A stretch of DNA of 64,000 nt from Haliangiales bacterium (GTDB lineage Bacteria > Myxococcota_A > Polyangia > Haliangiales > SHYZ01): NCBI GenBank assembly GCA_035259575.1, contig DATFWE010000009.1:29800-93799 (forward strand). The letters run 5' to 3'. This document shows positions 61,107 to 63,730 of this stretch, piece by piece. A program made the position numbers and the translations under genes. The stretch's first letter is position 1, and each line of letters begins with the position of its first letter. The notes beneath the pieces are model-generated. The model saw nothing but the letters and a program-made list of their open reading frames with translations, made no database searches and had not been told where the DNA came from.

Positions 61107-62936
61107 TCAAGCTTTCTTCGCCGCCACGCCCTTGTCCCGCTTCTTTTGCGGCTTGGCGTCGGTCTTGGCTTCGGGCTTGGCTTCGGGCTTGGCCTCGGGC
61201 TTCTTGGCGTCCGGCTTGGCCTCCGCCTTGGGCGGCGTCGGCGCCGGCTTCTTCTTGTCCTGCGCGTTCATCCACTGCTGGTGGCCGATCGACAGCCCGG
61301 TGTTCGTCAGCATGTAGATGCCCAGGCCCGACGGAAACACCAGCGAGAAGAAGCCGAGCATCGCCGGCATGAGGTACTGCATGATCTTCTGCTGCTGCGA
61401 GTCCACCGCCGCCGGCGACAGCTTGGTCTGGAGGAACGTGACGCCGGTCAGGACGATCGGGATCACGTAGTAGGGATCCGGCACCGTCAGGTCCTGGATC
61501 CAGCCCACGAACGGCGCGCGGTAGAGCTCCGCCGCCGCCGACAGCGTCTGGTACAGCGCGAACCAGATCGGCATCTGCAGCAGGAGCGGCAAGCAGCCTC
61601 CGAGCGGGCTGATCTTGTGCGACTTGTAGAGCTTCATCAGCTCTTCCTGCTGCTTCATCTTGTCGTTGGCGTACTTCTCGCGAAGCTTGTCGAACTCCGG
61701 CTTGAGCTTGCTCATCGCCTTCATCGACCGCATCGACTTGGTCGTCCAGTACAGCGTGAGCAGCTTCACCGTGATGGTGAGGAGGATGATCGCCAGGCCC
61801 CAGTTGATCACCCAGCCGTGGAACACCTTGAGCAGCGCCAGCATCGGCCGGGCCAGGAACGAGAACCACCCCAGGTCGACCGCGTCGGCGAGGTGCGTCT
61901 CGCGCCCGCCCACGATCGAGATCTGATCCAGCTCCCCGTGGAGCTTGGGGCCCGAGTAGACGATGAGCGATTGCTTGAGGCTCTGCCCCGGCTCCAGCGT
62001 CGACGGCGTGTTGAACGTGAGGCGCGACTCGATGATCCCGCGCCGCTCCGCCGCCACCATCGAGCTCGCGCACACGACCGGGTCGGAGCCCAGCGGCGCC
62101 GCCGCGAACAGGAAGTACTGGTGCGCGATGCCGCCCCAGCGGACGTCTCCGCCGTGCACAGTCGGCGCCGCCGCCAGCCCCTTGACCGCGTCGTGGCGCG
62201 CCTTGCCGTCGACGTAGCAGGCGGCGTCCCACCAGGGCTCGGCGTAGGTGAACGTGCCGCGCTCCTTGGCCATCGGGTCCTGGTAGCCGAAGAGCTCCAC
62301 CGAGGCCTCGACCATGCGCTTGGGCCCGCCGGCCGGCGCGGCGTTCGTCACCGTGAAATCGAGGAGGAACCCGTACTTGGACGGGACGTTGCGGCGGAAC
62401 GTCTTGGTGATCTCCACGGTGCCGTCGCCCGAGCGCCACTTGAAGGAGATGGCGTCGTCGGACTGGTTGGTGAGCTCCCACGTCGCGCCCGCGGGCACGA
62501 GCCCGACGCGCTGCTCGTCGGCATTCGTGCCGCCGGATGCGGGCGCGGCCACCTGCACCTGCAGCGGGAAATACGCCGGGGCGGGGCCGGTCCGCACCAT
62601 GTCGATCGGCTTGCCGTCGATCTCGAACTGCGCGCCCTTGAGCGTCAGGCTCGCCAGCGCGCCGCCGCAGCGAGAGAACGTCGCGGTCCACTCGGGCGTG
62701 TCCCACCGCGGCGCTTCGTTCGGCGACTCCGGCACGCACGCCGGCCCCGCCTCGGGCGCTCCCGGCGCCGGGGCCGGGGCCGCCGTCGCGGCCGCGGCCG
62801 CCTTCGTCTCCGCGGCCGCCGGCTTTTGCGGCGGCGCGGGGGGCGGCGCCTTGGGCGGGAACAGCAGCATCCACGCCAGGTACATGGCGGCGACGATGCC
62901 AACCGCCAGGAGCAGCCGTTTGCCTTGATCTTCCAT
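61107..62936 (-). CDS. yidC: Membrane protein insertase YidC
   Basis: An N-terminal TM and a large periplasmic P1 domain are followed by the conserved core ..NWGLAIILLTITVKLLTLYW..PLGGCLPLLLQMPIWFALY... The C-terminal tail is basic and repeat-rich (PEAK repeats). Confidence 0.95.
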   Translation of the reverse strand: MEDQGKRLLLAVGIVAAMYLAWMLLFPPKAPPPAPPQKPAAAETKAAAAATAAPAPAPGAPEAGPACVPESPNEAPRWDTPEWTATFSRCGGALASLTLKGAQFEIDGKPIDMVRTGPAPAYFPLQVQVAAPASGGTNADEQRVGLVPAGATWELTNQSDDAISFKWRSGDGTVEITKTFRRNVPSKYGFLLDFTVTNAAPAGGPKRMVEASVELFGYQDPMAKERGTFTYAEPWWDAACYVDGKARHDAVKGLAAAPTVHGGDVRWGGIAHQYFLFAAAPLGSDPVVCASSMVAAERRGIIESRLTFNTPSTLEPGQSLKQSLIVYSGPKLHGELDQISIVGGRETHLADAVDLGWFSFLARPMLALLKVFHGWVINWGLAIILLTITVKLLTLYWTTKSMRSMKAMSKLKPEFDKLREKYANDKMKQQEELMKLYKSHKISPLGGCLPLLLQMPIWFALYQTLSAAAELYRAPFVGWIQDLTVPDPYYVIPIVLTGVTFLQTKLSPAAVDSQQQKIMQYLMPAMLGFFSLVFPSGLGIYMLTNTGLSIGHQQWMNAQDKKKPAPTPPKAEAKPDAKKPEAKPEAKPEAKTDAKPQKKRDKGVAAKKA

Positions 62937-62938
62937 GC

Positions 62939-63154
62939 CTACCTCTTCACCGGGTCGAAGCCGCCTCTACAGAACGGATGACATCGGAGGAGGCGCAGTA
63001 GCGCGGCCGCCGTGCCCCGCCAGGCTCCGTGCACCTCGATCGCCTCCCGCGCGTACTCCGAGCAGGTGGGCAGAAACCGACACGACGGCGTGCGTTTGAG
63101 CGGCGACAGCCACCGCCGATAAAACCCGATCAACGCCAGCAGGAGCCGCCTCAT
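62939..63154 (-). CDS. yidD: Membrane protein insertion efficiency factor YidD
   Basis: LIGFYRRWLSPLKRTPSCRFLPTCSEYAREAI..HG.. is the canonical YidD sequence. The ATG at 63154 overlaps the rnpA TGA (ATGA). Confidence 0.9.
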   Translation of the reverse strand: MRRLLLALIGFYRRWLSPLKRTPSCRFLPTCSEYAREAIEVHGAWRGTAAALLRLLRCHPFCRGGFDPVKR

Positions 63155-63411
63155 GACATGCTTCTCGCCCGGACGAGCAACGTGCGGAGATCTTGATCCA
63201 CGGCGGGGTGACTCGCCACCCCCGCGGAATTGCGGGCCAGGATCACGAGATTTGCCCTCTCGGGCAGCTCGGGGATGTGCCGGCGCACGTACTCCCGAAC
63301 CCACCGCTTGAGGCGGTTGCGCACCACGGCGTTCCCCACCTTCGACGACACCGTGATGCCGACGCGCGTCTCCACGTCACCGTCCTTGCGCTCCCTGTTC
63401 ACGATCAGCAC
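63151..63411 (-). CDS. rnpA: Ribonuclease P protein component. Coordinates give the minimal ORF from the first canonical start; the conserved N-terminus continues in frame up to 63519
   Basis: ..RVGITVSSKVGNAVVRNRLKRWVRE.. is the RNR motif region. The 36 in-frame codons upstream (63519-63412) encode VRPTSEAFPKRVRLRTRSEYLSVQRLGRRVTGELFL. This aligns with the N-termini of E. coli and B. subtilis RnpA but contains no ATG, GTG or TTG. Confidence 0.8.
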   Translation of the reverse strand: MLIVNRERKDGDVETRVGITVSSKVGNAVVRNRLKRWVREYVRRHIPELPERANLVILARNSAGVASHPAVDQDLRTLLVRARSMS

Positions 63412-63519
63412 GAGAAAAAGCTCACCCGTTACCCTGCGCCCGAGGCGCTGGACCGAAAGGTACTCCGAGCGGGTGCGCAGTCTGACTCGTTTGGGAAAGG
63501 CTTCCGACGTCGGCCTGAC

Positions 63520-63678
63520 CTACTTCTTCGCGATCGTCACGGTGAGGCGCTTGCGGCCCTTGGCGCGCCGCCGCTTGAGCACCTTGCGTCCCTCTTGCGT
63601 CTGCATGCGCTTGCGAAATCCGTGAACGCGCTTGCGGCGCTTGTTGTGCGGCTGATACGTGCGCTTACCTTTGGCCAT
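63520..63678 (-). CDS. rpmH: 50S ribosomal protein L34
   Basis: Not in the ORF track (52 aa). My translation is [56 protein letters not shown] lies 9 nt upstream of the ATG at 63678. The TAG stop is at 63522-63520. Confidence 0.9.
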
Positions 63679-63701: not shown

Positions 63702-63730
63702 TCGTTAGCGCTTGCCCTCCAGCGTGTCAA
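63702..63730 (-). promoter_or_regulatory. Candidate rpmH promoter
   Basis: On the minus strand there is a perfect -35 TTGACA (63730-63725) and a 17-nt spacer. The -10 TAACGA (63707-63702) is weak. It lies about 25 nt upstream of the rpmH ATG. Confidence 0.3.

Follow-up and report, generated by a model that had tools for sequence, protein, structure and literature searches.

The AUU of infC is the classical autoregulatory start codon, its efficiency being set by IF3 discrimination. CTG is an accepted rare bacterial start. Genetic code table 11, to our knowledge, does not include ACG among its starts. Initiation at ACG is known for AAV VP2 and Sendai C', and editing of ACG to AUG at start codons is an established process of chloroplasts and plant mitochondria. 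We know of neither scanning 40S initiation nor RNA editing in bacteria, and of no bacterial C-to-U mRNA editing system. The conserved GTC start of Streptomyces sigR, which lies outside table 11, is experimentally proven and repressed by IF3 (Feeney et al. 2017, PMC5472188). In E. coli, ACG initiates at about 0.1–1% of AUG, with N-terminal Met by mass spectrometry, and is not among the annotated starts of the model genomes surveyed (bioRxiv 10.1101/063800). RnpA is kept scarce, commonly by weak GUG or UUG starts; E. coli has about 130 L34 for each RnpA (PMC9945441). A spacing between genes in the range −8 to +10 nt is taken to predict termination-reinitiation (PMC10666635). In Thermus, rpmH is nested inside rnpA, whose start lies beside the AUG of rpmH but in a different frame (Feltens et al. 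2003, cited in PMC9841429 and 10.1101/520783). No ACG start of rnpA and no natural bacterial ACG start is reported in the literature covered, subscription journals being outside its scope.

The window, the whole stretch of DNA analysed, is 64,000 nt long. Its L34 (HKA86282.1), YidD (HKA86281.1), Jag (HKA86279.1) and MnmE (HKA86278.1) are exact matches to proteins of a Haliangiales bacterium (Myxococcota) MAG; the source lineage of the ACG rnpA is soil myxobacterial Haliangiales. The window and related loci share the gene order rpmH-rnpA-yidD-yidC. Judged from sequence comparison, rnpA is probably translated from the ACG (63510-63508) that follows the rpmH stop by 9 nt, to give a full-length RNase P protein of 119 residues. 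The features of the locus are as follows.

63520..63678, minus strand: rpmH (ribosomal protein L34, 52 aa); open reading frame, Pfam PF00468 78.3 bits, exact match HKA86282.1.
63518..63526, minus strand: Shine-Dalgarno-like GAAGTAGGT / GAAGUAGGU overlapping the rpmH stop; weak, non-discriminating.
63522-63520, minus strand: TAG stop of rpmH, directly 5' of the rnpA N-terminal stretch.
63511..63519, minus strand: non-coding spacer of 9 nt, GTCAGGCCG, from the rpmH stop to the proposed rnpA start.
63508..63510, minus strand: ACG, proposed initiation codon of rnpA, kept in frame in 8 of 8 clade sequences.
63151..63510, minus strand: proposed full rnpA coding sequence, 119 codons and TGA; PF00825 model positions 1-108 of 109.
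63412..63507, minus strand: conserved N-terminal segment of RnpA, missing from gene-caller models.
63478..63480, minus strand: CTG, rejected alternative start, L of the RL motif.
63409..63411, minus strand: GTG, first canonical start, chosen by gene callers to give 86 aa.
62939..63154, minus strand: yidD, next gene of the operon, its ATG overlapping the rnpA TGA (ATGA); exact match HKA86281.1.

The original prediction placed the rpmH TAG (63522-63520) in the rnpA frame, followed by 36 codons without ATG, GTG or TTG, and re-reading of the sequence gives the same. These codons, 63519..63412 (GTC AGG CCG ACG TCG GAA GCC TTT CCC AAA CGA GTC AGA CTG ...), encode VRPTSEAFPKRVRLRTRSEYLSVQRLGRRVTGELFL. 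Its positions for ACG (63510-63508) and CTG (63480-63478) are correct, and its first canonical start, the GTG at 63411 with a product of 86 aa, agrees with ORF calling. The Logan gene call of the window rnpA is this 86-aa form (P0001). NCBI accessions run from L34 HKA86282 to YidD HKA86281 with no RnpA between them (63151-63519, minus strand), so the NCBI annotation produced no RnpA for the locus. In neighbouring genes about 7% of 36-codon stretches are likewise start-free, and the absence alone is therefore not statistically remarkable; it gains its significance from covering the conserved N-terminus just after an in-frame stop, and from its recurrence in all close relatives examined. A GC3 screen of the window for further start-less genes is too noisy to be of use, since antisense ORFs also have high GC3 at 71% GC.

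Pfam PF00825 matches the extended protein with 93.6 bits (cutoff 22.3) over model positions 1-108 of 109, and the 86-aa form with 70.4 bits over positions 36-108 only. Model position 1 falls on the F of AFPK, which is residue 8 in the extension; because the domain begins at residue 8 after the TAG, the rnpA start is placed within 7 codons of the stop. RnpA chains of the PDB are matched (1nz0, 3q1q, 1a6f, 2ljp) with E-values down to 2.6e-14. Counted from ACG as residue 1, the second residue falls on residue 3 of the T. maritima protein (1nz0, 3q1q), and residues 4-6 align to residue 5 in the RnpA of E. coli (2ljp) and of B. subtilis (1a6f); the protein predicted from ACG is colinear with the T. 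maritima, B. subtilis and E. coli structures. The RNR motif region, VGNAVVRNRLKRW, is invariant or near-invariant in the alignment of relatives. The segment absent from the 86-aa form aligns to what we take to be helix alpha-1 and strand beta-1, presumably in contact with the pre-tRNA leader (B. subtilis and T. maritima structures).

The protein database searched holds 5.8 billion proteins. Hits with at least 60% identity are called as 68-96 aa and cover 50-81% of the query, with the read-assembled SRC protein P0020 as the sole exception; the truncated calls begin at differing internal GTG or ATG codons. Hits of about 55-60% identity possess the N-terminus together with an ordinary start (P0003 VASGFPK, P0004 MSASAFPK, P0007 MPESTFPK). 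The DNA sampled comprises the loci of truncated calls and 80 metagenomic loci, each anchored on the RnpA HMM; P0025, P0030, P0003 and one P0001 place are left out of the junction set. The metagenome scan yields mainly distant relatives, which serve as the positive control, and only L008 and L009 as close ones. A scan of genome contigs with a single protein and over-specific patterns gives nothing but a distant Sphingopyxis locus. An ordinary start is present no more than 20 codons upstream of the RL motif in 67 of 83 distinct loci (ATG 33, GTG 22, TTG 12), so normal starts are detected by the method where they are present. The 16 loci without ATG, GTG or TTG in this range are nine rows of the window clade, five CTG loci, one ATC locus (L071) and L045, the last with a GTG just beyond the 20-codon range.

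The clade set consists of the window and seven further distinct sequences with 66-87% RnpA identity, from independent metagenome assemblies. The junctions have the following stops, spacers and first codons.

WIN/L007: TAG, gtcaggccg (9 nt, frame 0), ACG TCG GAA GCC TTT CCC.
L002-4: TAG, gtcagggcg (9 nt, frame 0), ACG TCG GAA TCT TTT.
L005/6: TAG, gtccgcg (7 nt, frame 1), ACG TCG GAA TCG TTT.
L088/89: TAG, gtcgggcg (8 nt, frame 2), ACG TCG GAA TCG TTC.
L090/91: TAG, gccgaa (6 nt, frame 0), ACG TCG GAA GCC TTT.
L095: TAG, gccgaa (6 nt, frame 0), ACG TCG GAA ACC TTT.
L008: TAG, gcccaa (6 nt, frame 0), ACG TCG GAA ACC TTT.
L092: TAA, gctcc (5 nt, frame 2), ACG CTG GCA AGC GAG CGC TTT.

In 8 of 8 sequences the stretch from the in-frame stop upstream to the domain contains ACG and lacks ATG, GTG and TTG; the aligned rpmH-rnpA junctions show in all of them the lack of an ordinary ATG or GTG first noted in the window. 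Upstream of ACG, the rnpA frame contains a TGA inside rpmH in L005 and is open for 67-93 codons without a canonical start in L088 and L092 (93 codons with no canonical start in L088). From ACG onward, no indels occur across 33 codons in seven lineages, L092 having two extra in-frame codons, and pairwise differences in these seven lineages at codon positions 1/2/3 are 40/54/148. The spacer is not coding, because its length of 5-9 nt shifts the rnpA frame freely. With a spacer of variable length on the 5' side and indel-free, third-position-biased sequence on the 3' side, ACG is the boundary between non-coding and coding evolution. It is the only single-mismatch near-cognate of AUG kept in the rnpA frame between stop and domain in the eight sequences, and stands at F-4, the position of the P0003 GTG start, which overlaps the rpmH stop by 1 nt (gene coordinates). 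Near-cognate initiation at ACG 63510, one of the explanations first offered, is strongly favoured by the comparative data. The invariance of ACG is unremarkable when taken alone, since 37% of the invariant codons of fourfold or higher degeneracy in the clade are fully conserved. With no canonical in-frame start before the domain, a conserved codon and an upstream sequence that evolves as non-coding, the locus probably belongs with the genes that have a conserved non-canonical start codon (infC AUU, sigR GTC type).

The same data bear on the 86-aa protein. That initiation at GTG 63411 gives the real product, the 108 nt upstream being non-coding spacer or relic, is improbable. The GTG is the first canonical start, is picked by gene callers and has the best Shine-Dalgarno-like match of the region (−8.7 kcal/mol, stronger than that at the rpmH stop); however, the 33 codons upstream of it are open, indel-free and third-position-biased across the clade, and match Pfam positions 1-35 and solved RnpA N-termini. 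The short form would lose the region aligned to the presumed helix alpha-1 and strand beta-1. The first canonical start also shifts between lineages (P0009 MTGELFL, P0010 VQRQGRK, P0018 VHGELFL).

UAG read-through or other recoding to an L34-RnpA fusion is compatible with the window, L002, L090, L095 and L008, in which rpmH and rnpA share a frame interrupted by one TAG, and with P0020, which reads KKK-VRPTPEAFPK and has a sense codon at the stop position. It is nevertheless very improbable: rnpA is out of the rpmH frame in L005/L006 (7 nt), L088/L089 (8 nt) and L092 (5 nt), the stop of L092 is TAA, and a fusion would need three different recoding mechanisms inside one clade. Since frames 0, 1 and 2 all occur among close relatives, UAG read-through, which the original prediction had put forward, is excluded as the conserved mechanism. 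No conserved in-frame ORF relation across the stop was found, and the shared frame of rpmH and rnpA, at first taken as a key feature, is incidental. P0020, which also switches frame within rpmH, has the look of an artefact of assembly or reads.

P0020 (SRC, SRR5215510) corresponds to window 63683-63350, minus strand. In it an alternative rpmH frame is joined to TVTLAKKK-VRPTPEAFPK..., a K codon stands in place of the TAG of the window, and the frame switches by 2 nt within rpmH. This protein is probably an artefact of the reads or of protein assembly, and might conceivably be a strain variant without the stop.

Another non-canonical start, at CTG 63480, AGG 63516 or GTC 63519, is quite unlikely. 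CTG is accepted as a rare start, as stated above, and AGG is a single-mismatch near-cognate of AUG. GTC is the proven start of Streptomyces sigR (PMC5472188). However, the position of CTG 63480 is CTC in L002, L005, L090, L095 and L008, and a start there would drop the FPKRVR segment (Pfam positions 1-6); GTC and AGG share the frame of rnpA in part of the lineages only, and L090, L095 and L008 have neither. In-frame conservation is absent for all three codons, and the CTG, proposed originally beside ACG, is not retained as a start, being lost in five lineages. In L092 a CTG is found immediately 3' of ACG, and could be the start in that lineage.

Sequencing or assembly error, or a decaying rnpA pseudogene in this lineage, is extremely improbable. 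The NCBI annotation does lack an RnpA protein at the locus, but over 10 independent contigs, drawn from four data sources (Logan, JGI, ENA, NCBI) and truly divergent in sequence, carry an rnpA without a canonical start. The frame is intact over its full length, with an invariant RNR motif region and third-position-biased substitutions. Sequence error, listed at the outset among the possible causes, is excluded by the identical feature in these independent assemblies.

Among the first dozen or so rnpA codons (63470-63507, minus strand), GAA, AGA and GTC are invariant across the clade. GAA, TTT, AAA, CGA and AGA, all present in the first rnpA codons, are presumably rare in a 71% GC genome. Selection acting on the translation-initiation region may lie behind the early codon choice in rnpA, or else the suboptimal codon usage that is reported for this gene.

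In a neighbour-joining tree of the protein of about 110 residues, calculated without bootstrap support and indicative only, all ACG loci fall in one clade with 66-87% identity to the window, nested among ATG, GTG, TTG or CTG lineages. This suggests one origin of the ACG start, followed by long retention. ACG is likely to serve an essential gene here as a true and obligate bacterial start that is stable in evolution, and would then extend the natural start set of table 11.

The conserved-CTG loci are L009, L018, L025, L027 and L069. In L018, L025, L027 and L069 a strong Shine-Dalgarno sequence, GGAGG-like or GGGGAAGG-like, lies 5-6 nt upstream of the CTG (L018 1174-1215, equivalent positions in L025, L027 and L069); the rnpA frame relative to rpmH differs in L069 from that in L018, L025 and L027. 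L009 (1189-1215) has CTG at F-3, and L071 (1104-1125) has ATC at F-3. In L096 (54% identity; 1004-1200) the rpmH-rnpA spacer is 197 nt long and the rnpA frame within it is low-complexity, rich in Pro, Asp and Gln; no canonical start precedes the FPR motif, and only an ATC at F-5 or a TTG inside SLRL is present. The CTG and ATC lineages appear to start rnpA at those codons, and taken together with them the ACG clade suggests that rnpA may be a recurrent site, a hotspot, of non-canonical initiation.

The Shine-Dalgarno-like site at the rpmH stop pairs with CACCUCCUUUC at −6.9 kcal/mol, the pairing ending 6 nt before ACG. It is kept in 7 of 8 clade members, and resembles the Shine-Dalgarno sequence of rpmH itself (−6.6) and the yidD-yidC junction. 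Random 25-mers of the region score as well in 27% of cases; duplex energies and the local GC dip do not discriminate between ACG and background. RNAalifold on the junction gives no compensatory pairs, and a small GGAA/UUCC hairpin and the CCGACGTCGG palindrome are without support. The Rfam scan gives no match. The tRNA scan gives tRNA-Gln only, and hence no hint of a special initiator tRNA. No promoter-like or terminator-like site is found on the gene strand between rpmH and rnpA.

At 63504-63513 (minus strand), CCGACGTCGG forms a perfect 10-nt palindrome centred on ACG, with its 8-nt core CGACGTCG also present in L002, L005 and L088. Upstream of rpmH, at 63702-63730 (minus strand), stands CTTGACA-N17-TAACGAT, with counterparts in L088 (CTTGACT...GCTAACGATAC) and L092 (CTTGACA...GCTAAGCATAC); it is likely the rpmH promoter, though not called by the consensus scan. 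The yidD-yidC junction (62934-62950, minus strand; AAG AGG TAG GC ATG) has an architecture like that of rpmH-rnpA with a normal ATG: the stop codon lies within a Shine-Dalgarno-like purine run, with the next start a few nucleotides downstream. Overlaps are ATGA for rnpA/yidD and GTGA for jag/mnmE. From its sequence, the entire operon looks translationally coupled.

In the proposed mechanism, initiator fMet-tRNA would read ACG with a middle-position mismatch, and ribosomes terminating on rpmH 5-9 nt upstream would aid initiation by termination-reinitiation, perhaps assisted by the weak Shine-Dalgarno-like sequence over the rpmH stop. The distance from rpmH stop to ACG is 5-9 nt in all clade members, inside the range of −8 to +10 nt. 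Termination-reinitiation, also among the explanations first offered, is compatible with it. This spacing, and the lack of a promoter-like or terminator-like site between the genes, makes coupling plausible; initiation of rnpA is probably coupled to rpmH termination, on which it would depend. The very low efficiency of ACG would set RnpA at about 1/100 to 1/1000 of L34. Given the efficiency of ACG in E. coli and the roughly 130-fold rarity of RnpA there, an ACG start would give approximately the required RnpA:L34 ratio from one mRNA.

Editing of ACG to AUG by C-to-U conversion in the mRNA, with normal AUG initiation thereafter, is compatible with the DNA data taken alone, and such start editing is familiar from chloroplasts and plant mitochondria. 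It is highly unlikely here: no bacterial system of this kind is known to us, and the window gives no sign of one. ACG itself can, moreover, initiate at the low level that RnpA needs (10.1101/063800). Either such editing or a dedicated clade-specific initiation mechanism is scarcely probable. Were editing to occur, it would mark the first bacterial case of mRNA editing that creates a start codon.

If rnpA is initiated at ACG, this codon joins the few start codons that bacteria are known to conserve in nature, here in an essential housekeeping gene and over deep divergence, to about 66% protein identity. It would provide a simple, hard-wired setting of the approximately 100-1000-fold gap between L34 and the RNase P protein from one mRNA. 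It would also explain why pipelines truncate or drop rnpA, in what looks like a systematic annotation failure of the gene in this clade. A missing RnpA call can be mistaken for the loss of an essential gene, and may skew completeness or pseudogene statistics.

In Thermus, as that arrangement is summarized in the sources above, rpmH and rnpA likewise have an unusual translational arrangement. Nesting of the Thermus type is rejected here: the rnpA frame has a TAG (window) or TGA (L005) just upstream, and in L088 and L092 the upstream frame is open with no canonical start. Since the frames upstream of ACG hold either a stop or no start codon, rpmH and rnpA are not nested.

AAV VP2, Sendai C' and organellar genes resemble this locus in having ACG at the start position and a product of low abundance. 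The eukaryotic and viral cases use scanning 40S ribosomes and the organellar ones RNA editing, neither of which is known to us in bacteria.

The infC start (AUU, or ATC in Streptomyces) is, like the ACG of rnpA, a conserved non-canonical start on a housekeeping gene related to translation. AUU and AUC have a third-position mismatch, are table 11 starts and reach about 1-3% of AUG, whereas the mismatch of ACG is at the second position, and its efficiency in E. coli is about 10-fold below that of AUU/AUC (10.1101/063800). infC is autoregulatory; for rnpA no feedback logic is evident.

The GTC of Streptomyces sigR is the closest proven analogue of the rnpA ACG. Both are clade-conserved codons outside the accepted start set, mis-annotated by pipelines that assume ATG, GTG or TTG, and a weak start lowers the protein relative to its operon partner in sigR and would do so in rnpA. 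sigR differs in its codon (GTC, not ACG), in its strong extended ribosome-binding site (AGGAGGTG) and in being the first gene of its pair; its start is proven, including repression by IF3, while ACG is the proposed start of rnpA on comparative evidence. In E. coli and other bacteria, rnpA belongs to the same rpmH-rnpA operon and RnpA is about 100-fold below L34, apparently for a shared purpose (PMC9945441). The GUG and UUG starts of rnpA of the E. coli type are canonical, and the proposed ACG would be an extreme of that trend.
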